NCBI GenBank assembly: GCA_964215955.1
Contig: CAXPDR010000029.1
Span: forward strand, 1,073-65,072
Source: Flavobacteriaceae bacterium
GTDB taxonomy: Bacteria > Bdellovibrionota > Bacteriovoracia > Bacteriovoracales > Bacteriovoracaceae
Length of the DNA stretch: 64,000 nt
Direction of reading: 5' to 3'
In this document: positions 15,542 through 50,459 of the stretch, piece by piece
Numbering within the stretch: position 1 is the stretch's first letter
How the letters are laid out: every line of letters begins with the position of its first letter
Made by a program: the position numbers and the translations under genes
Notes under the pieces: model-generated
The model's input: only the letters and a program-made list of their open reading frames with translations
Told to the model about the DNA's origin: nothing
Databases searched by the model: none

Positions 15542-18500
15542 ATGAAATTTATTAATTTTGCGTTTTTAATTTTGACTTTTAATTTTGTTTCTTGTTCTCA
15601 AGGGCCTGGAAAAACTAATGTCAAAATATCCCTGGCAGCAATAAGTGGAAGTGAAAAATTCCCTGGTGGACTTTTTCTTTATGGGAAAAATAAATCAATT
15701 CCAGATATGGGTTTTGCCAGAAAAGTAAATGCAGATGATACTCTTGAGTTAGAACTTGAAAATGGTGACTGGGGTTTTGTGGTCATGGGGTGGGACGGTT
15801 CTCAATACTATGAGGGAAATGCATTTTGTGATGCTATGGCAAAAAAACTTGATGGTGCTGAAGTCAGTCTTTCTTTGGAAGCGACTAGGGCCAAATGTAG
15901 TCCAAGATATATAAATGGTACGAATGAGCTTTACAATGGATTTTATTCTTTAAAAATTCATACTTGTGCAGGCATAAGAGATCATATTGCGAATGGAGAA
16001 CCAATTCCTTCTAACTTTAAATGTGATGGTAGCATGGATATATTTGACGGAGGAATGAAGTCTTTTAAAGTTTACTTGGCTGAGTTTATGCCAGGAGAAG
16101 GGGAGCGTTTTTCAAGTGAGTCACGTTGTTTGACTACAACAAATTCCACAACTCCTGCTTCTGTTAATCTTCCTCTTGGATCAGATAAAATAAAGACTGC
16201 TGTATTGATCAAAGGATACTCAGATAGTTCTTGTACTTCAGAAGTTAAAAAATACGTTTTTAGAGATGGTATCAAATTTCCTGAGGATGATTTTAATGCC
16301 GCAGCAGTGCTAGATAGTGTAACAAAAACGGTAAATCTTTTTGCTCATGCTAAGTTGTGTAATGAGGCGCAAAAAAACTCACCAGTTTTTGCTGCAAGCT
16401 CAGACACAGATAATGATGGCTTGAGTGATACTCATTTAATTTGTACACCTACTCAGTTTGCAAGTATAGATGGTTTTCCAACTGATAATTTTATATTAGG
16501 TGCTGATATTGATATGAGTGGGTTGAACACAATAACGAGCACATTTTCAGGTAATTTCGATGGGCAAAATTATAGATTGTACGATGGTGTACAACCCATA
16601 TTTCAAGAAGTCTCAGCAAGTGGTACTGATATAAGAATTGAAAATTTAATTATAGATAATTTTCAGATAGATTATAATTTTGAACCTTCAACGAATACAC
16701 TTGGGATACTTGCCAATCAAAGCTATCCATCAGGTGGAAAATTAGAAATAACTAATTTGTATTTTAACTCGAATAATAAAATAGAAATCTCTGTGGCTAA
16801 CGGTGGAACTATTTCAACCAATACGTATCTTGGGGGATTAATTGGAGATGTCCAAGTTCAAACTAGTGGAAAATTAGAAGTTCGTGACATAAAAATGAAT
16901 GGTTTAGTTAGGGCTTATGATGACAATATTAGAGTTGGAGGTGTGTTTGGTCGCTTTAAAAATACCAGTGGTGAAAAACCAAAAGTTGAATCAAGCCGCG
17001 TTGGAACCTCTTCAGAAAAAATGATGATTCAAGGTTATCAAAAAATCGGTGGTATCGCTGGACAGATACAAGATGCAGAAGTTGTTCAAAAAACAGCGGT
17101 TTTTGCAAAGCTTAAAGGAAAGGATTTTGTAGGTGGGATTGTTGGTGATGCACTTGATGGAACTGAAATTAGAGATGCAAAAACAGATATTGAATATGTA
17201 CCATTCGATAGCTCTAACTCAAGAGTTGGTGGTATTATTGGTGGAATCGCAGGTGATTTCTCTGTAAAAGTAGATGGGGTCATGGCAAATTTGGTTGTCC
17301 TTGAGCCTACTGGGACTAAAAAAGTAGACCAATTAGGTGGTATTATTGGTGGAAAAAATTTTGGTTCTGGAGCTGTTAATCCTTTTCAAATTTCAAATTC
17401 AAAAGCCATTGTTGATTTTAATGTTAATGGACAATCTCATGGGGGATTGGTTGGAAGTCAATCTGTTACAAATGGAACACGAGATGAAATTAGAAATTCA
17501 ATTGCTATGGGGAGCTTACTTGAATCAAGTAGGGTAACGTCGAATATAAATAAAGGTGGATTCGCAGGGGACTCAAGTAACCTTAAGATCGAAATGTCAG
17601 TTGCAAGTTTTACTAGTATTGAAGGAGACCGACAATTAGGTGGAGGGATTGGTTATAGTAATAACACAATTTTAAATGAATCCCATATCAAAGGACATGT
17701 GGAATGTTTAAAAAATACTGCTTATCTTTCGTGTGGTGGTATTACTGGTCTAAATAACGATTCATTTAATACTGGGCACTTTGAAGACCTTTATGTGGAT
17801 GTAAGTCTGAATGTTCCAAACTTTGATGTAGATGGTAATAGTGGTTGTAGTCTTCAGAAGTGTGGACGACTTGCTGGAAATAATCTTTCTTCTTATATGA
17901 GTTTTGAGAGAATTTATCTGGTACAAAGCCAAATGCTAGATATGAATGAAGCAGATATTAGTTTTAATACAGGATCAGGGAATGTGACTCCAGGTGATCA
18001 CATAGACAATTTACAAACTGATGATTCCACAACTTGTAATGGAGCCATCCTAGGAAAATTTGATAATTCTCATGGTATTTTTTCCTCTTGTGGTTTATTA
18101 TTTGAAAAGCAGTGGCGAAGCTATGGTTTTGCGGGTGAGTACCTTGCTGGGAATTGGATTGAACCGTTTGAAATCTATTCAACTGTTGAATGGAATAATA
18201 TTAAAGCCGATGCTTTCTTAGTTCAACAGACTTTTAAGCTAATGGATGATTTAGATTTTGCCAGTGGAACTTTTGAACCTATTGGGTCAATTTCCAATCC
18301 TTTTTCGGGAAGAATTATTCCGAATGGGAAGACTTTGAAAAGAATTAATTTCACAGCCGGAAATGATAATGCTGGTATCTTTAATGCCACAGGAAATGGT
18401 GCAAGTATAGGTTGGTATAATGATCCTCTTAAAATTTTTGATATGACGATTGATTGTACTTCTCAATTAAACTGTGGAGTCATTGGCCAAGCACAAGATA

Positions 18501-19257: not shown

Positions 19258-20954
19258 TGAAGCACTTAGTCACGTCTGCACTACCTTACGCTAATGGACC
19301 TATTCACTTTGGACATATTGCTGGAGTTTATTTACCAGCTGATATCTATACGAAACATAGAAAATTAAAAGGTGAAAAATGTATTCATATTAGTGGTTCT
19401 GATGAACATGGTGTGGCGATTATGCAAAATGCTCAAAAAGCGGGGAAGTCGTATAAAGAGTATGTTGACGAGTGGAATCAAGAGCATTTCGAGCTATTTA
19501 AAAAATATGGAATCGAATTTGATTTTTTTGGACAGACTTCTGAGAAGTACCATGAGGAAGAAGTATTAAAGTGGTTTGATGAGTTGCATGCTAAAGGTTT
19601 TATTGAAAAGAGGGCCGAAGAGCAGCTTCAGTGTCAGGATTGTCATAATTATCTTCCAGATCGTTTTGTGGAAGGGACTTGTTATGTTTGTGACTATGAA
19701 GAAGCAAGAGGAGATGAGTGCCCTAATTGTGGAGAGTGGATTGATGCTGTAAAGCTTAAAAACCCTACATGTAAGTTTTGTGAATCAAAAAATATTGAAG
19801 TTAAGTCTGTAGATCAGTGGTATTTGATGCTTTCAAAATATCATAAGGAATTTAGAGAGTGGTTTGAAGGTGTTTCTCCTACTTGGAGAAAAACGGTGAC
19901 TAGCTTTGTTGATTCTTTAACTAAAGAAGAAATGGTTGATCGTGCGATTACCAGAGATTTAGACTGGGGAATTGATGTTCCGTTAGCTGAGGCGAAAGGG
20001 AAGAAACTATATGTGTGGTTTGACGCGCCAATTGGGTATGTTTCAAATACCAAAGAGTTTTTAAAGAAAACTGAATCAAGTGATGATTATATAAAAGATT
20101 GGTGGCAAGCAGAAGATACTGTGATCACTAATTTTATTGGTAAAGATAATATCATTTTTCATGCGATTATCTTTCCTATGATGAGCCTTGCTAGTGGCAG
20201 GGCCAATGCGGTTAAAAGTCTTCCAGCGAATCAATATGTAAATTTGGAAGGAAAGCAATTTTCTAAGTCTAAGGGATGGTATGTAGACGCTCATGGTGCT
20301 GTGGATGAATTCGGAGCAGATGCTCTAAGATATTATCTAACAACACTTATCCCTGAGAGTAATGATTCTAGTTATACTTGGGAAGGATTTGAAGCTAAGA
20401 TTAATAATGAGCTTGCTAATAATATTGGAAATTTTGTCAATCGTGGAATGACTTTTTTCTATAAGAATTGGAAAGAAGGTATTAGTGAGGATAAGTTTTT
20501 AAGCTTTTATGAAACAGAAGCATTTAAAGATTTAAAAGTTCAAGTTGCTACGATTAATGAAACTCTAGATAATATTCAAGTTAAAAGAGCACTTGAACAA
20601 ATTATGCATTTAGGTCAAACTGCAAATACATTCTTTTCAGATAATGCTCCTTGGGCGCAAATTAAAGAAGATAATGATGCGGCAGCAACGACAATCGCTC
20701 ACTCGGCTATCTATGTTTTAACTTTGAGTGCTTTATTAACTCCATATCTTCCGACCCTTTCATCTCAAATTAAAGAGTATTTTGGTGGTTTATCAGATGA
20801 AGTCGTTAAAGATCTATACACTGGAGAATTTGAGCTTTTAAAGGACTTTGTGAAAGGTGGAGTCCAAATTGTTAAAAAGCCTAAGGGGCTAGTTCAAAAA
20901 ATTGAAGCTGATCGTATTAAAGAGTTAAATGAGCAGTTGAGGGCCAAGGCATAA
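19257..20954 (+). CDS. metG: methionyl-tRNA synthetase (short form, no C-terminal Trbp111-like domain)
   Basis: HIGH-type motif ALPYANGPIHFGHIAG, KMSKS-type motif KFSKSKG, and zinc knuckles CQDCHNY / CYVC / CPNC / CKFC. Confidence 0.95.
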   Translation: MKHLVTSALPYANGPIHFGHIAGVYLPADIYTKHRKLKGEKCIHISGSDEHGVAIMQNAQKAGKSYKEYVDEWNQEHFELFKKYGIEFDFFGQTSEKYHEEEVLKWFDELHAKGFIEKRAEEQLQCQDCHNYLPDRFVEGTCYVCDYEEARGDECPNCGEWIDAVKLKNPTCKFCESKNIEVKSVDQWYLMLSKYHKEFREWFEGVSPTWRKTVTSFVDSLTKEEMVDRAITRDLDWGIDVPLAEAKGKKLYVWFDAPIGYVSNTKEFLKKTESSDDYIKDWWQAEDTVITNFIGKDNIIFHAIIFPMMSLASGRANAVKSLPANQYVNLEGKQFSKSKGWYVDAHGAVDEFGADALRYYLTTLIPESNDSSYTWEGFEAKINNELANNIGNFVNRGMTFFYKNWKEGISEDKFLSFYETEAFKDLKVQVATINETLDNIQVKRALEQIMHLGQTANTFFSDNAPWAQIKEDNDAAATTIAHSAIYVLTLSALLTPYLPTLSSQIKEYFGGLSDEVVKDLYTGEFELLKDFVKGGVQIVKKPKGLVQKIEADRIKELNEQLRAKA

Positions 20955-20976
20955 GGACTTTTATTCGTCATTAGCG

Positions 20977-21169
20977 AATGAGTTTAAAGACAAAGTCTGG
21001 AAGCGAATGATTATATAACTTAATAACAATTGTTTGAAAGAGCTTCCAATTAATCTGGATTAGGGTGAATTATTGTTTAAATCTAATACTGATATACTAA
21101 CGCCTTCTAGCAAATATCCTTATGAAACAAATTATTGCTTCAGTTGTTTATTTTAACTTTAAACTCATT
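20977..21169 (+). repeat. MITE-like intergenic repeat, copy A (193 bp, 13-bp perfect terminal inverted repeats)
   Basis: The TIRs are AATGAGTTTAAAG (20977-20989) and CTTTAAACTCATT (21157-21169). Four internal blocks are shared with copy B: 20984-21003, 21040-21049, 21097-21110 and 21136-21150. Confidence 0.7.
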
Positions 21170-21202
21170 AACAACATCAAAAACTGTGAGATAAATTTAG
21201 CC

Positions 21203-21796
21203 TTATTCTTCCTTGTGATAAAGGTATTGGTTTCCTTTGATATTTAAGGATTGCTTAAATTCATGGCGGGTTCTATTCCAGGTATGAACGACATGGCCGG
21301 TTTCTGAATCAATATAGGCTTCAAAGCTAAATGGCTTTCCAGCTTGATTTTTGAAACTTACTAGGACGTGTTCAAGATGTTTACCAACATTATCACTTAC
21401 TTTGATCACAGATCTTTTTAATTCAACCTTAAAGTCTTTAACTTGATTGTTAGGAATGAGTTTAAAGAAGTTTTTTTGATATTTTTCTTTCCAATCATCA
21501 TTTACCGAATTTGCAAGATAAAGGTCTTTTAAATTTTGAACTTTTCCTAAATAGATTCTTTTATTTTCTTTTTTTATTTGAACCGGGATATTTGGTACTG
21601 AGGCAATTTTTCTTGAAGCTGGTTTAACCGGATCAATATTTTCATTCTTGGTGACCACTGAACTAGAATCTTTTTTTTCTTTTACTTCATTTTTAGCAGT
21701 GTTCATCTTCTTTGAAGAAGGATTAACCAGGAGAAAAGTGCTAACTCCTATGATTAAGCTTAAAACGATAAAAATTTCTTTCTTCTTATTTTTCAT
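21203..21796 (-). CDS. membrane-anchored protein with PepSY-like C-terminal domain
   Basis: N-terminal TM helix (IFIVLSLIIGVSTFLLV). The C-terminus, HVLVSFKNQAGKPFSFEAYIDSETGHVVHTW, fits the PepSY pattern (…v.v…g…e..iD..TG.v…). Its start lies 1 nt after the upstream protease stop. Confidence 0.45.
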   Translation of the reverse strand: MKNKKKEIFIVLSLIIGVSTFLLVNPSSKKMNTAKNEVKEKKDSSSVVTKNENIDPVKPASRKIASVPNIPVQIKKENKRIYLGKVQNLKDLYLANSVNDDWKEKYQKNFFKLIPNNQVKDFKVELKRSVIKVSDNVGKHLEHVLVSFKNQAGKPFSFEAYIDSETGHVVHTWNRTRHEFKQSLNIKGNQYLYHKEE

Positions 21797-36682: not shown

Positions 36683-36696
36683 AATTAACCAACCTA

Positions 36697-36735
36697 CTTT
36701 AAGCTCATCCCCTCGTAAAGGGGATGGTTAATAAG
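36697..36735 (+). repeat. partial (end-only) copy of the same repeat family
   Basis: ctttaagctcatcccctcgtaaaggggatggttaataag aligns by hand at about 35 of 41 positions with the reverse complement of 50201-50241, the hairpin-bearing end of copy B. Confidence 0.55.
36706..36726. terminator. hairpin between convergent genes (36380-36682 + and 36738-40580 -)
   Basis: catcccct-cgtaa-aggggatg, an 8-bp GC-rich stem. It is part of the partial copy of the intergenic repeat family. Confidence 0.45.
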
Positions 36736-36737
36736 TT

Positions 36738-39700
36738 TCATTGTCCCACTGCAGAAGTATTTGAATCATGAGACTGAAATTCCCAATTTAACAAAAACTC
36801 ATTTCGATTATTATCATATAGTGTATCTGAAAAATCAAAAGAACTGACGTTGTCTAAGAAGTCCTGGGGATTAGAAAAATAAGCTGTAGCAAAAGAAGAA
36901 TCATCGGAGCTTGTTCCAATAATAAATGAATCTATTGCTATATTAGTAGAGCTTGTTCCGATAAATAAGCTATTTGAGCCAGAACCCCCAAAATTATTTC
37001 CATTGATAATAACGAGATTATTTTCAAAAATACTACTATCTGGAGCTGAACCTGCAATACCACCGTTTTGGCCGCCTGATCCGGCAGCAAAATTTGTTGT
37101 TTTTGTAAGATCAAAATCGATTATATTCGTTTTGTATATTGCGTCTGATGTTCCTTCGTAACCAATTAAGCCTCCTGCGTAAGATGATGTTTTACTTGTT
37201 ATAAGATCATCGATTTTTACTTTTGAATTTTCTACCCGAAAATAGGAAGAAGTATTTAATCCAACTAGGCCGCCAATATATCTAGCATCTCCAAGTATTT
37301 TTCCAGAAAACAAGCTATTTTTAATAAAGGTTATAGAACTGTTTATACCAATTAAACCTCCAGCATTAGTTGCAGCTCCTGAAGTAGTGTTTATTTCACC
37401 ATTAGTGATTCTTGCACTTATAAAGCTACTATGTGAAATTCCTGCAATAGATCCTAAATAGTCTAAGTCATGTGTGGTATTATTTAAAAGAAGTCCGTCA
37501 ACTAATAATGGAAGATCAGGGGTACCTGCTAAACTTATAAAACTTGAACTCGAGTTACCAAGGGTCGTGATAATCCCAATAGATTTTGAGTCACAGCTAT
37601 TGGCAGTCCAGATCGCATCATCTAAATTAATCGTTATATTTTTAAGTGTAAAAGGTAATCCTTCAGGATTAAAATTAGAGAGTAGGGTTCCTGTAAAGCT
37701 TGAACTTAGATTACAGCTAAGAAGTCCACTTAATGGGTCAACAAAGGCTCCAATTGGAACAAATTTTGTTGGGTCATTTTGAAAATCTATATTATCTGCA
37801 AGAGCAAACCCCTTATTCAGAAGAAATGCATCACTGTTAATTCTATTCCATTCATTTTCATTATGGATTTTAAAAGGCTCAAATAGATTTCCTAGTCTAA
37901 ATCTATTACCTCCAAATTCTGGATCATTAAACAAACCATAATCAATCCAATGTTCAAGAAAGAGCGGAACTGGGTCTGTTAAAATTGTTGAAGTTGCAAC
38001 CCAGTTAGGAAGACCAGTTTGATAACTCAGATCAGTTATATCGTCAACTAAGATGGAGCTTTTGCCTGAAACTCCACTTATAGTAGAGTAGTTACTTGAG
38101 GAGGTTTTAATTTCTGGAGCAATTGCACCACTACTTCCACCTAGAGAATAGTATCCGGCTGTGTTGACTACATTTGTTTCGATTAATGAACCAAGAATAC
38201 TTACAAATTGAACAGGTCTTGCTGGAAAAGTTTGAAGAGCATTTATATTTTCACCAATTACAAAGCCGCATTGTTTTGTCGAGCTAGCACTGTCACAGTT
38301 ATCAGCTATGACTTCAATATTGGCAATAACTTTAGAGTGCTCAACTCTTCCTGAAGTTCCGTTATAACCAGTAATTCCCCCAACGGCGAAATCGCCACCT
38401 TCACTAGTTGCATCTAAATTAAGATTTTCAATATTTGCAAAGCATTCAGAAATTAAACCTAGGTTTTTACCTGTGATTCCGCCAAGGTTATCTCCTCCTG
38501 TTAATTCTTTAAAATTAGCAATGGAAAACCTAATTACGTTTGAAGTATTTTGATTATATCCCACGAGGCCACCTCGATTGTCATTAACTAAATCAATGGG
38601 CGATACTATTTTGATTATCCCCATTGCAATTGAGTGTGTGATATTAACACCACCGAGAAATGAGTGTGTTGCTCCATCATTCATAACCCCAATGAGTCCA
38701 CCCACATTACTTCCATTAAAGTCAAAATAGACAATTGTTCCTACATTATTAATCAGATTTGCTGATGTTTCAGTTCTTCCTACTGCGCCACCTACATTAG
38801 AAAAGGTATCATCGAAGTCGATTATTGAAAAATTTGATAAACTATGATGAATCTCAGATCCTTGAGCAGTTCCAATCAGCCCTCCAATTCCATCGCATAT
38901 ATCAGTTGCTGGGGAGGTCACAGCCGGTCCTTTTGCTTTTGAACAGCTTATTGTACTAATTGACCCATTATCATCTTCTGAAAAGATTGACCTCTCAATC
39001 ACTGAGGAAATTGCTGAACCTATGATCCCTCCTAGTTGATCTGTTCCATTTAAGTCAACTTTAGTTAAGCTGGCTCCACTTATATTTGTATTATCAGCGT
39101 ATCCGATCAAACCTCCAGTTTCTGATTGATCGGAAATAATCGTGAGATTGTGAATATCAATATCATTTAATTCTACTTCTCCTGATGGATTCGTGACTTT
39201 TCCAATTAGGCCACCGGTTGGAGATGTTGAATCCCCATTAAATGAAATAATGTTTGCGCCTTGTGAATATACTTCAATATCAGATAGATTAACTATTGCT
39301 CCTGTACTTGTTGAAATTTTTCCAATGAGACCGCCTGTCGCATTTGCCCCTGTTGAATTGACACCAATAGCTAGGCTATCGATACTTATGTTATGAAAAC
39401 GTGTATTCGTTGATGTTCCTGCTGTCACTTCATTAATTAGTGCTCCTGTATAAGGACCAGTAGTAGAAATGTTCACACCTTGAATTGTGAAATTACCAAT
39501 AAATTTTTCACCAGAAAGATTGGAGAAGTTATTAATTAAAGGCTTATCTAATCCAATAATCTTTTTATTATTACCATTAAAGTTTCCTGTGAAAGATGAA
39601 ATAGTATTAAAACCGGTGGCAGTAATATTTTTTCCGAGGATGTAGTTATTTGTTCCTGTCATCATTTCAAGTTCAGCTTTATTACAAATGACATAAGGAA

Positions 39701-40580
39701 TTGTGCCTCCGTCTCCAATCTCGAAACCGACATTATTGACAGCATATGTTGGACAAAGAGGTTGTCTTATATAAAATGTATTGGTGTTAGTTGCTATATT
39801 TGCTTTAACAAAAGAACCATAGACCGTTTGAGAACCTTCATAGAATCCACTTTTGAAATCGATCTTATCCCCAGTTCCAGCACATCCTTCTTGAGAATAT
39901 GCGATAATTGACTGAGGAATTCCTTTAAATATAAGTGGTCTAACCTGAGGATTTCTTAATACATGGTGATCGTTATTACCATCTGTAATACATGTAGATT
40001 CGAATGGATTTGATCTATTTTCAAACATCCGTTCTTCATTCGAAAAATTGACATCATAAGAAACAATTTTATAACTTTTATAAACTCCAGGTGCTTCTGA
40101 GCAATCATCACCTAAAAAAATCTCATTGTCGCCTTTGGTGCAAGAGATAAACTCTGCTGGTCTTGGACTTCCACTCGCTTCGTTATATTCACCTTCATCA
40201 CTTTTGAAAGGTTCTTCTCCACAACCATCTGTACTGGGAGTTAAATTTATATCTACAGGTGAGCCATCCAATTTTATTTCACCCTCCGTAATAAAGCATT
40301 TAGGTACTCCTGCCATCGCACTAGTGCCAGCATCCCACCCAACAGCGCCAAATTCCCATTTACCGTTATCTAAATCGACTTCATAGGTAGTGGTATTTAA
40401 TAATCTTTTAGTAAAGACAACTTTAGTATCTGGATTATGACCAAGAATATAAAGTCCACCAGGAAACTCATTGGGACCAAAAGATGCACCGAAACTAATT
40501 TTGGCCGAAGTTGTCTCTGGCTTAGGTGAGCAACTAATTAAAATTAAAAATCCAAAGATAAATATTGTTAAGTTTTTCAT
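36738..40580 (-). CDS. giant GLUG-repeat surface lipoprotein (paralog 2)
   Basis: Lipobox LILISCSP when started at ATG 40580. At least 14 GGhhG repeats (ATGGLIGKI, ETGGLIGYA, NVGGLIGVM, YIGGLVGLN ...). The N-terminal domain (KISFGASFGPNEFPGGLYILGHN) and the mid-protein module (FEPFKIHNENEWNRINSDAFL) align with paralog 1. Confidence 0.75.
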   Translation of the reverse strand: MKNLTIFIFGFLILISCSPKPETTSAKISFGASFGPNEFPGGLYILGHNPDTKVVFTKRLLNTTTYEVDLDNGKWEFGAVGWDAGTSAMAGVPKCFITEGEIKLDGSPVDINLTPSTDGCGEEPFKSDEGEYNEASGSPRPAEFISCTKGDNEIFLGDDCSEAPGVYKSYKIVSYDVNFSNEERMFENRSNPFESTCITDGNNDHHVLRNPQVRPLIFKGIPQSIIAYSQEGCAGTGDKIDFKSGFYEGSQTVYGSFVKANIATNTNTFYIRQPLCPTYAVNNVGFEIGDGGTIPYVICNKAELEMMTGTNNYILGKNITATGFNTISSFTGNFNGNNKKIIGLDKPLINNFSNLSGEKFIGNFTIQGVNISTTGPYTGALINEVTAGTSTNTRFHNISIDSLAIGVNSTGANATGGLIGKISTSTGAIVNLSDIEVYSQGANIISFNGDSTSPTGGLIGKVTNPSGEVELNDIDIHNLTIISDQSETGGLIGYADNTNISGASLTKVDLNGTDQLGGIIGSAISSVIERSIFSEDDNGSISTISCSKAKGPAVTSPATDICDGIGGLIGTAQGSEIHHSLSNFSIIDFDDTFSNVGGAVGRTETSANLINNVGTIVYFDFNGSNVGGLIGVMNDGATHSFLGGVNITHSIAMGIIKIVSPIDLVNDNRGGLVGYNQNTSNVIRFSIANFKELTGGDNLGGITGKNLGLISECFANIENLNLDATSEGGDFAVGGITGYNGTSGRVEHSKVIANIEVIADNCDSASSTKQCGFVIGENINALQTFPARPVQFVSILGSLIETNVVNTAGYYSLGGSSGAIAPEIKTSSSNYSTISGVSGKSSILVDDITDLSYQTGLPNWVATSTILTDPVPLFLEHWIDYGLFNDPEFGGNRFRLGNLFEPFKIHNENEWNRINSDAFLLNKGFALADNIDFQNDPTKFVPIGAFVDPLSGLLSCNLSSSFTGTLLSNFNPEGLPFTLKNITINLDDAIWTANSCDSKSIGIITTLGNSSSSFISLAGTPDLPLLVDGLLLNNTTHDLDYLGSIAGISHSSFISARITNGEINTTSGAATNAGGLIGINSSITFIKNSLFSGKILGDARYIGGLVGLNTSSYFRVENSKVKIDDLITSKTSSYAGGLIGYEGTSDAIYKTNIIDFDLTKTTNFAAGSGGQNGGIAGSAPDSSIFENNLVIINGNNFGGSGSNSLFIGTSSTNIAIDSFIIGTSSDDSSFATAYFSNPQDFLDNVSSFDFSDTLYDNNRNEFLLNWEFQSHDSNTSAVGQ

Positions 40581-48858: not shown

Positions 48859-50199
48859 ATGATTAAAAGACTTTTAATACTTATTCAATTTGGGATCCTT
48901 ACTTCTTGTGTAACATCAGAGATTAATATCGATACAGTTGCTGAAGAGACGAAAGAAGTTATTCCAGAAGTTGTATTTCAAGGTGTAAATGATGAAAGCT
49001 TTGGAGTAAAAAGACTTAGCTCTTCTGATGATCATAGTATCGCTTTTGATAGCGCAATGGATTCACATGGAAATGTATATATCACTGGTTATACTCAAAA
49101 TATTGCTTCCAGTTTAAAGACGTTAACAGTTTGGAAGTATTATAGTAATGGAAGCTTAGATAGTAGTTTTGGATCGGGTGGTGCTTGGTATTATAATGGT
49201 GATTCTTCAGATAAAGATAGTGAAGGCTTGGCCATTGAAATTGATAAAAATGAAAAGCTTATTATTGCTGGTTATACAAAAGATAGTAGAGCAAGGGCCT
49301 TAGCCTTGAGGTTAAACTCAAATGGAACTCTTGATACAAGCTTTGCAAGTTCTGGTTATTATATTTATTCTCATCCTAGTGCTGGTGCAAGTCAGGGGGA
49401 GAGAGCAAACTGTCTGGCGATTGGTGAAAATCAAAATATCTACCTTGGAGGACAAGGGTATCATGTAAATGATAAAAGTTTGAAGATTTGGAAGCTAGAC
49501 CAAAATGGAAATGTCGTCACGAGCTTTGCTAGTTCTGGCCTTTGGCAGATGAATAACACTGCTGGAGGGGCTGGTTCGGATAAAATAATCACCTGTGATT
49601 ACCATGACAATGCCATTATTTTTGGAGGATATTCTTGGGGAGGAAGTTCTGGTGGTAAGCATAATGCATTTATTGGAAAAATTTCTTCCTTAGGAGTTAT
49701 TGATTCATCTTTTGGCACTAGTGGGTTTATCATCGAAAATGAAATAGCCGGTGGGACTAATGTTAACGATTATATTGATAAAATAAAAGTACGCTCTGAT
49801 GGACATATTTACGTCCTAGGAAGATCGACAAACTCTGGTGGTGATGTTGATACATTTTTATTAGAAGTGGGTTTTGATGGGAGTAATAGCGACATTTCAA
49901 TAAATATATTTAATGATATTTTGGGATACCCAGGCAATGATAAACTCATGGATATTTACTATGAGTCCAGCACTAAAAAATTGTTTACAGTTGGAAATGC
50001 ACCCGGTGCAGGTGGCTTTACTGCGGCCATCGCAGGGGTTATCAATTCAGACTACACGATAGATATTTTAAGCCAAACTGAGACTGTTTACGGCGGATCA
50101 ATTTTTAACAATATCTCATTTAGAAATAAAAAACTTTATAATATTGGTTTTGAAACAAAGTCAGTAGAAAAAGGCTTAATAATAAGTCGATTAAAATAA
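48859..50199 (+). CDS. lipoprotein with delta-60-type beta-propeller repeats
   Basis: Lipobox GILTSC. Repeats of about 55-60 aa carry the delta-60 signature: YSNGSLDSSFGSGG, LNSNGTLDTSFASSG, LDQNGNVVTSFASSG, SSLGVIDSSFGTSG. Confidence 0.65.
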   Translation: MIKRLLILIQFGILTSCVTSEINIDTVAEETKEVIPEVVFQGVNDESFGVKRLSSSDDHSIAFDSAMDSHGNVYITGYTQNIASSLKTLTVWKYYSNGSLDSSFGSGGAWYYNGDSSDKDSEGLAIEIDKNEKLIIAGYTKDSRARALALRLNSNGTLDTSFASSGYYIYSHPSAGASQGERANCLAIGENQNIYLGGQGYHVNDKSLKIWKLDQNGNVVTSFASSGLWQMNNTAGGAGSDKIITCDYHDNAIIFGGYSWGGSSGGKHNAFIGKISSLGVIDSSFGTSGFIIENEIAGGTNVNDYIDKIKVRSDGHIYVLGRSTNSGGDVDTFLLEVGFDGSNSDISINIFNDILGYPGNDKLMDIYYESSTKKLFTVGNAPGAGGFTAAIAGVINSDYTIDILSQTETVYGGSIFNNISFRNKKLYNIGFETKSVEKGLIISRLK

Positions 50200-50200
50200 T

Positions 50201-50435
50201 CTTGATTAACCGTCCCCTCTGCGTGGGGATGAAGCTTAAAGCCAAAGTAAACAACTGAAGCACTATACTGTGTTTTAAACCGATTCGACTAGAAGGCGTT
50301 AGGGGATTTATTATTTTTTGTGGGAAAAAGGAAAATAAAAAGTCTCGGGTCTTTGGAAGCTCTTGAAATTATTGTTACAAAAACAAATTAATCTTTCACT
50401 TCCAGACTTTGTCTTTAAGATCATCCCCAATCAAG
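50201..50435 (-). repeat. MITE-like intergenic repeat, copy B (inverted relative to copy A)
   Basis: The TIRs are TGGGGATGAAGCTTAAAG (50224-50241) and CTTTAAGATCATCCCCA (50413-50429), with outer cttgatt/aatcaag ends. Blocks 50399-50418 (20/20 identical to copy A), 50353-50362, 50289-50302 and 50248-50262 match copy A in reverse complement. Confidence 0.7.
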
Positions 50436-50459
50436 TAGGTTAGTTATTAACCTTGAAGA

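Follow-up and report, generated by a model that had tools for sequence, protein, structure and literature searches.

Two intergenic insertions, here called copy A and copy B, lie in the 64,000-nucleotide stretch of contig CAXPDR010000029.1 that was analysed (the window, at its full length), copy A between metG and a convergent gene of 197 amino acids and copy B next to a gene for an RRM protein. Both are members of a family of miniature inverted-repeat transposable elements (MITEs) that is genuine and previously undescribed; a literature search found no paper on MITEs in Bdellovibrio-like organisms. A sequence-only reading of the window had proposed such a family from these two copies, describing opposite orientations, inverted repeats and four conserved internal blocks. 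Each of these features was recovered in its place, the blocks being identical and in the same order in both copies, with blocks 1 and 2 together spanning 66 nt in each, and shuffled sequences gave no comparable matches. Both copies do lie between convergent genes directly after stop codons, and the statement that neither holds a conserved open reading frame (ORF) is borne out in that no frame is shared between them.

The inverted repeats noted by that reading are present but subterminal: aligned with flanking sequence, conservation reaches 17–18 nt past the repeats first seen in copy B, which thereby gains the ends given in Table 1. Nor are the two full copies equivalent, given that copy B is canonical and polymorphic among strains whereas copy A represents a diverged subfamily. 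Copy A, and with it the 248-nt gap that it occupies, is kept in 3/3 related assemblies recovered via the flanking proteins (L170, L171, and L172). In four congeners (G006, G001, G004, and G002; compared over window 20952–21205) only 0–4 nt separate the two stop codons at this locus, and it is probable that the whole of the gap in the window is filled by the copy A insertion, the outer ends of which are degenerate.

Table 1. Coordinates of the MITE copies, their parts and the insertion sequence (IS) copies. Positions without a contig name are those of the window, counted from its first letter.
Feature	Position	Strand	Remarks
Copy A as first delimited	20977..21169	+	member of diverged MITE subfamily, perfect 13-bp subterminal inverted repeats
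Copy A inverted repeat	20977..20989		AATGAGTTTAAAG
Copy A inverted repeat	21157..21169		CTTTAAACTCATT
Intergenic gap, metG/convergent gene, 248 nt	20955..21202	+	probable full extent of copy A insertion, including decayed ends
Block 1, copy A	20984..21003	+	TTAAAGACAAAGTCTGGAAG; 3′ portion forms the 5′ arm of the conserved 7-bp stem
Block 2, copy A	21040..21049	+	GAGCTTCCAA; 3′ arm of the stem
Block 3, copy A	21097..21110	+	CTAACGCCTTCTAG; its TAACGCCTTCTA recurs exactly in the G159 and G177 elements
Block 4, copy A	21136..21150	+	TGCTTCAGTTGTTTA; its TTCAGTTGTT recurs exactly in the G159 and G177 elements
Mini copy, 46 bp	36685..36730	+	first 15 nt of left terminus joined to last 31 nt of right terminus
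Copy B, full canonical MITE, 241 bp	50207..50447	-	ends from alignment of 18 canonical copies and from target duplications
Copy B left target-site duplication	50448..50457	-	TTCAAGGTTA; same as single target copy in empty allele L165
Copy B right target-site duplication	50197..50206	-	ATCAAGATTA; 8/10 positions as in left copy
Copy B left terminus	50431..50447	-	ATAACTAACCTACTTGA; resembles left end of C31-type IS
Copy B right terminus	50207..50223	-	...CGCAGAGGGGACGGTTA; matches IS right end where transposase ORF stops
Copy B left subterminal inverted repeat	50413..50429	-	CTTTAAGATCATCCCCA; seen in sequence-only reading
Copy B right subterminal inverted repeat	50224..50241	-	TGGGGATGAAGCTTAAAG; seen in sequence-only reading
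Block 1, copy B	50399..50418	-	identical to copy A
Block 2, copy B	50353..50362	-	identical to copy A
Block 3, copy B	50289..50302	-	identical to copy A
Block 4, copy B	50248..50262	-	identical to copy A
IS, complete copy	C27:36497-37525		1029–1036 bp class, one open frame
IS, complete copy	C6:66198-67229		1029–1036 bp class, one open frame
IS, complete variant copy	C31:105966-107001		70% identical; 1029–1036 bp class, one open frame
IS, truncated copy	C37:~17135-17790		
IS copies cut by contig ends	C19, C23, C25, C29 (76687-76921), C31, C36		

The family across the genome

The assembly to which the window belongs (3.76 Mb in 42 contigs, hereafter the home genome) was searched with copy A, which matches 26 places, and then in three rounds of nhmmer, which gave 24 loci on 14 contigs. 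The count bears out a family that had been proposed from two members: there are 18 full canonical copies, 81–92% identical to copy B, two diverged full copies, namely copy A and C34:173018-173223 (the C34 copy), and four fragments. Canonical copies measure 240 ± 1 bp, start with CTAACTAACCTACTTGAATGGGGATGAGCTTAAAG... and finish with ...CTTTAAGTTCATCCCCACGCAAAGGGGACGGTTA. Their terminal repeats are imperfect and about 25 nt long (left CTAACTAACCTACTTGAATGGGGAT, right ...ATCCCCACGCAAAGGGGACGGTTA), and inside these IS-like tips lies a subterminal inverted repeat of about 30 nt that differs between subfamilies. Because the element ends form a long imperfect palindrome, reverse-strand matches to the family profile also appear at all full-length loci. 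Copy A is about 69% identical to the canonical copies outside the blocks. In copy A, and likewise in the C34 copy, both arms of the subterminal repeat depart concordantly from the canonical form, and for that reason these copies are regarded as separate subfamilies rather than as canonical copies in decay.

Insertion has left a duplication of 10 bp. The 10-mers that flank the canonical copies are direct repeats, with a mean agreement of 8.0/10, where left/right pairings shuffled 2000 times gave 5.4 and at most 6.5. The agreement is a perfect 10/10 in four copies; the consensus of the duplicated site is ATAANNTTTT. For copy B the site before insertion is preserved on a contig of GCA_035092365.1 (L165), where ...aatcTTCAAGGTTAttttaatcg... 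carries the single 10-bp target, the flanks are 97–98% identical to those of copy B and the junction breaks exactly at its ends. Contigs from other samples also encode the exact RRM protein that adjoins copy B, and two of them, a TARA Oceans metagenome scaffold and one of GCA_035092465.1, carry copy B itself at 99% identity. With the site empty in one strain and occupied in others, copy B is a precise insertion whose presence varies among close relatives.

These observations exclude an origin of the two copies from a duplicated gene 3′ end, an alternative named by the sequence-only reading, or from some other segmental duplication. Such an origin would have accounted for the position of both copies directly after stop codons, and also for a frame of about 50 codons in the canonical consensus that ends like the transposase of the IS (...SP.KG.G, stop). 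It is refuted by the 10-bp target duplications and the precise empty site, and further opposed by the dispersal of the family over 24 loci beside unrelated genes and by the breakage of that frame in other copies. The frame itself (for example in C6:16288-16519) runs from block 2 to the last codons of the element (...SSPRKGDG, stop), in register with the C-terminus of the transposase discussed below (...SPHKGGG, stop). It does not stay open in copy A, the C34 copy or the related element L078, several canonical copies lack its ATG, and it is probably a relic, not a gene; its coding potential was rejected given that it is not kept in those three elements. More generally, the MITE carries no transposase gene, its reading frames are broken between subfamilies, and in the frame of block 3 the stops differ among copy A, the C34 copy and L078.

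The placement of the copies is far from even. Convergent genes flank 13 of the 24 loci (binomial p = 0.002, with 25% expected), tandem genes flank 10 and divergent genes one, and the nearest 3′-facing stop codon is mostly 2–37 nt away. At the 10 tandem loci the orientation of the element relative to the genes is evenly split. The target consensus resembles the TAA...TTA junction that is formed where convergent stop codons abut, and the tips of the element, as read from their sequence, supply stops in all frames within a few codons. AT-rich sites of this kind would be common where convergent stop codons abut, and insertions there would do little harm, which would explain why copies are found directly after stop codons; a preference for such targets, combined with the tolerance of 3′ ends toward insertions, suffices to account for where the copies lie. 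The abutting convergent stop codons of metG and the 197-amino-acid gene in the congeners look like the target motif.

The mini copy of the window is an internal deletion relative to the family consensus, sits just 3′ of the stop codon of the gene at 36738–40580, and shows no clear target duplication. A solo right tip of the MITE (TTAACCGTCCCCTTTGCGTGGGGATGAGCTTA) is found at C24:70046-70077 of the home genome, followed by unrelated sequence.

An IS1-like partner

No transposase was found adjoining the four MITE fragments. A repeat shared by several contig ends opens with the right tip of the MITE, TTAACCG(A/C)CCCCTTTG..., and it led to an autonomous IS resident in the genome. Its transposase ORF is open for 297 amino acids from the start codon (303–306 codons between stops) and ends ...KGGG, stop, inside the right inverted repeat of the IS. 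This right end, TTAACCG(C/T)CCCCTTTG(C/T)GTGGGGAT, corresponds to the right terminus of the MITE, the two being nearly identical over 25–28 nt (IS TTAACCGCCCCCTTTGTGTGGGGAT, MITE TTAACCGTCCCCTTTGCGTGGGGAT), and the left end of the C31-type IS (AACTGACCTACTTGGATGG) agrees at 18/19 positions with the left tip of some MITE copies (AACTGACCTACTTGAATGG). The 10-mers flanking the IS copies agree at 8/10 (C27) and 7/10 (C6) positions. Inward of the terminal 25–28 nt the profile finds no significant similarity between MITE and IS, and a derivation of the MITE interior from the IS was rejected given that only these termini align. An apparent correspondence of block 4, in frame, with transposase codons LQGHLE across a 30-nt deletion was seen by eye and is not significant.

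The partner agrees with the layout of IS1-type elements (length about 0.8–1.2 kb, inverted repeats of about 20–25 bp, ORF ending in the right repeat), its complete copies being 1029–1036 bp long with an ORF that stops inside the right repeat. As in the IS1 family, a single transposase, putatively of the DDE type, is encoded in about 1 kb. It has a visible CPxxxC...CxxC motif of a predicted N-terminal zinc finger and weak matches to helix-turn-helix models, and its best NCBIfam and annotated plasmid matches are labelled IS1. The former is to the IS1 family model NF033558 (E = 1e-8, residues 9–151 only); further matches are to ISL3 (E = 1.2e-7) and, below its cutoff, to the IS1/IS1595 zinc domain NF050000 (E = 4e-4). 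The latter, from a tblastn search of plasmids, is one annotated IS1 family transposase that aligns over 95% of the length at only 23% identity (E = 3e-5). IS1 itself has ends that begin GGT... and usually duplicates 8–9 bp, whereas the present element has ends that begin TTAACCG..., a 10-bp duplication and one ORF without a frameshift. The transposase thus appears to be IS1-like but only distantly related to the IS1 family, and the cluster to which it belongs has no name on record. The family of this transposase is present in 111 of the 237 Halobacteriovoraceae genomes searched, and the end consensus of the homologous IS is (A/T)AAC(T/C)GCCC...TGGGG.

The 5′ leader of the IS contains AAAGTCATGAAGCTTTCAT, a compact form of the inverted pair that blocks 1 and 2 make in the MITE. 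In the leader of the C27/C6-type IS, about 90–105 nt inside the left end, there is in addition an internal inverted copy of tip-like sequence (GCTAACCTATTTAAAT) that is similar both to the left tip of the MITE and to the C31-type IS at its left end, and the outer ~100 nt of this IS type may derive from the capture of a MITE or IS left end.

Four conserved blocks

The blocks are the best-kept part of the element. In the window the 20-mer of block 1 has two matches, and so does the pattern of block 3, gap and block 4, as against 0.00 for either in 100 dinucleotide-preserving shuffles. Blocks were also delimited independently, as stretches of 8 or more columns in which copy A, the C34 copy and the canonical consensus all agree. 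Within these the 18 canonical copies have 0.28 non-consensus bases per column and elsewhere 1.70 (p = 2e-8), a roughly six-fold reduction, and singletons number 0.18 and 0.48 per column, respectively (p = 0.003).

It is very improbable that the blocks are without function and owe their identity to recent ancestry, gene conversion or mutational cold spots in decaying selfish DNA. The family is young, with one copy polymorphic among strains, its copy number is sufficient for conversion between copies, and the block motifs are short, all of which would suit such an account. However, copy A and the C34 copy differ from each other and from the canonical copies to about the same degree outside the blocks (~65–70% identity) and not at all inside them, and the concordant changes in the repeat arms mark copy A and the C34 copy as separate lineages; under uniform decay, at least four identical runs of at least 13 nt within 230 nt at 66% identity arise with P ~0.0004 in simulation. 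The blocks also recur beyond the home genome. Searched at the right spacing in the 237 genomes, blocks 3 and 4 are confined to 20 copies in the home genome, one in G159 and three in G177, the last two being metagenome-assembled genomes (MAGs JBEIOQ01 and JAEYUK01) from other genera of the Halobacteriovoraceae. The elements there share cTAACGCCTTCTA, a 29–32 nt spacer and TTCAGTTGTT exactly with the MITE of the home genome, even though the rest of the element is unalignable, and they are bounded by perfect subterminal inverted repeats of 18–26 bp (imperfect to ~45 bp in L076 and L077). Scans of species-representative, viral and metagenome contigs for block 1 or blocks 3–4 found only these elements and chance matches in coding regions; L107 is a doubtful relative from the contig scans. 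Exact block 3 was not found outside MITE loci in the home genome, on which ground the blocks were rejected as stand-alone regulatory motifs.

One of the related elements (L075, at G177:C24, ~1111–1161) lies within the last codons of a gene, to which it adds a new C-terminus and a stop codon. It is flanked by a 13-nt direct repeat, TTCATGAG(C/T)GAAG, and its tips are not obviously IS-like.

A functional RNA or RNA-level signal, whether carried by the MITE or recruited from it, is an unlikely though not negligible explanation of the conserved core. The blocks would be single-stranded junctions, bounded by a long closing stem and the stem of blocks 1 and 2, and the role might be that of a 3′ untranslated region (UTR) stabilizer, a bidirectional terminator, an RNase III site or a small RNA. 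Several of the observations fit such a picture: blocks 3 and 4 are identical in three genomes of different genera, where the flanking repeats differ fully and are still complementary; the autonomous IS does without these blocks, and hence they are unneeded for its transposition; singletons are depleted in the blocks; and copies placed right after convergent stop codons would be transcribed as 3′ UTRs. The arms of the first stem have likewise been replaced yet remain complementary, being CTGGAAG/CTTCCA in the home genome, CAGCTC/GAGCTG in L075 and L078, and CCAGC/GCTGG in L076 and L077. This exchange across genera, in only about seven lineages, does show that an inverted pair is wanted at this place, and a DNA hairpin, an RNA hairpin and a palindromic binding site fit it equally; complementary inverted repeats are, moreover, expected of any transposon at the DNA level.

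The direct searches for a structured RNA are unfavorable. At gathering thresholds no Rfam model matches the window, and at permissive ones (E up to 10 for copy A, up to 1 for copy B) only chance-level matches appear. In the interiors of the 20 copies, RNAalifold finds an invariant 7-bp stem of blocks 1 and 2 only; the covariation term is –0.03 and compensatory pairs are absent. Of the pairings proposed in the sequence-only reading this stem alone persists, and the alternative of block 1 with block 3 is not predicted. Whole elements fold with z-scores of –2.0 (copy B) and –1.0 (copy A), mostly owed to the inverted repeats, and the interior segments (z about –1) and the spacer between blocks 3 and 4 (z about 0) fold no better than shuffles. 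A hairpin between blocks 3 and 4 was rejected, given that the variants in the spacer break it rather than compensate. A scan of copy B for promoters and terminators gave nothing above the shuffled background and no terminator-like site, and the even split of orientations at tandem loci likewise speaks against an RNA-level role. The suggestion that the family encodes a structured RNA gained no support from these results, and an RNA role for the family, though unsupported, keeps a small probability. That the spacer between blocks 3 and 4 keeps its length while its pairing is not conserved suggests a pair of DNA sites held in register more than it does an RNA helix.

A MITE family with a resident partner

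Given the 24 loci, the terminal repeats, the 10-bp duplications, an autonomous partner with the same ends and the empty allele of copy B, the original MITE reading is upheld. It may be put at about 85% that the feature is a family of MITEs with a resident IS1-like partner, and ordinary selfish DNA apart from the blocks. The transposase of the partner would bind the shared termini in trans, and the element would be inserted by a 10-bp staggered cut at AT-rich ATAANNTTTT sites. The four blocks would be sequences kept by successful MITE lineages: blocks 1 and 2 as a short inverted pair beside the left end, with its compact counterpart in the IS leader, and blocks 3 and 4 as two motifs 29–32 nt apart beside the right subterminal repeat. 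Blocks 3 and 4 would most likely be DNA-level sites that aid the persistence or movement of the element, and less likely an autonomous structured RNA.

Several points weigh against this reading. Mobilization in trans by the partner transposase is inferred rather than observed, and the transposase has no Pfam match and scores 35.4 bits against NF033558, for which the curated cutoff is 100, so that it falls outside the IS1 family model and the family label is a distant one. No clear target-site duplication can be defined around copy A, nor is there a clear one at the C34 copy. Blocks 3 and 4 have no counterpart in the partner IS or in 29 IS copies from other genomes and are therefore not simply sites that the transposase requires, which weakens the interpretation as DNA sites. 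The G159 and G177 elements keep blocks 3 and 4 exactly, yet their subterminal repeats have no sequence relation to those of the home genome and their tips resemble the IS at most weakly, the reverse of an ordinary MITE, in which the ends are conserved over the interior. Finally, the depletion of singletons in the blocks could reflect selection on copies after their insertion, which would point to use by the host.

A more speculative view, to which only a small probability is given, is that the four-block core is a mobile functional module re-packaged several times in differing inverted-repeat shells across the Halobacteriovoraceae. If so, blocks 3 and 4 would be kept by selection for the host or for persistence of the element and not for any need of the transposase, and the module might be an RNA element or a platform that binds a host protein at convergent 3′ ends, for example a portable insulator, terminator or transcript stabilizer.

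A MITE family with an IS partner belongs to a well-known kind of element, and the blocks are its one unusual point. The RUP elements of Streptococcus pneumoniae and MIC231 of Bacillus cereus are MITEs mobilized in trans by a resident IS. Like other IS-mobilized bacterial MITEs, the present elements are small, lack a transposase gene, occur in many dispersed intergenic copies, have termini in common with a resident autonomous IS, make duplications of fixed length and are polymorphic among strains. They differ in the partner, a divergent IS1-like element without a Pfam match, and in the 10-bp length of the duplication, as well as in a second, long subterminal inverted repeat that varies between subfamilies and in being most conserved in four internal blocks, not at the ends. 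MITEAba12 of Acinetobacter is a further bacterial MITE to which the family can be likened.

Other short repeats offer partial parallels. The present elements share with the Correia elements of Neisseria and the ERIC/IRU elements of enterobacteria the property of being short, rich in inverted repeats and intergenic, but have no sequence similarity to them. Correia and ERIC/IRU elements occur in intergenic regions and 3′ UTRs and are co-transcribed with their neighbors, with reported effects on RNA processing, stability or termination, and a similar side effect at the RNA level could apply here; Correia elements are 100–155 bp long and duplicate TA. REP/BIME sequences are abundant at gene 3′ ends and between convergent genes, as the present family is, and form hairpins. 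REPs, however, are 20–40 nt long, make no target duplications and depend on HUH transposases (RAYT, IS200/IS605-like), as opposed to the terminal inverted repeats, 10-bp duplications and putative DDE-type partner found here.

The family accounts for some 20 unannotated intergenic stretches in the genome of a predatory bacterium, and adds an active or recently active pair of a MITE and a divergent IS1-like IS with a transposase that Pfam does not recognize. Annotators gain the true ends of the MITE and its target motif. The conservation of internal blocks over ends, across genera, also raises the question of what non-autonomous elements need besides the sites at which transposase binds.

Repeats other than the MITE also break the assembly of the home genome. 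One of about 145 bp is found at the contig ends of C2, C13, C15, and C31, and another is common to C14, C34, C38, and C41. Exact overlaps of 127 bp between contigs are probably an assembly artefact.

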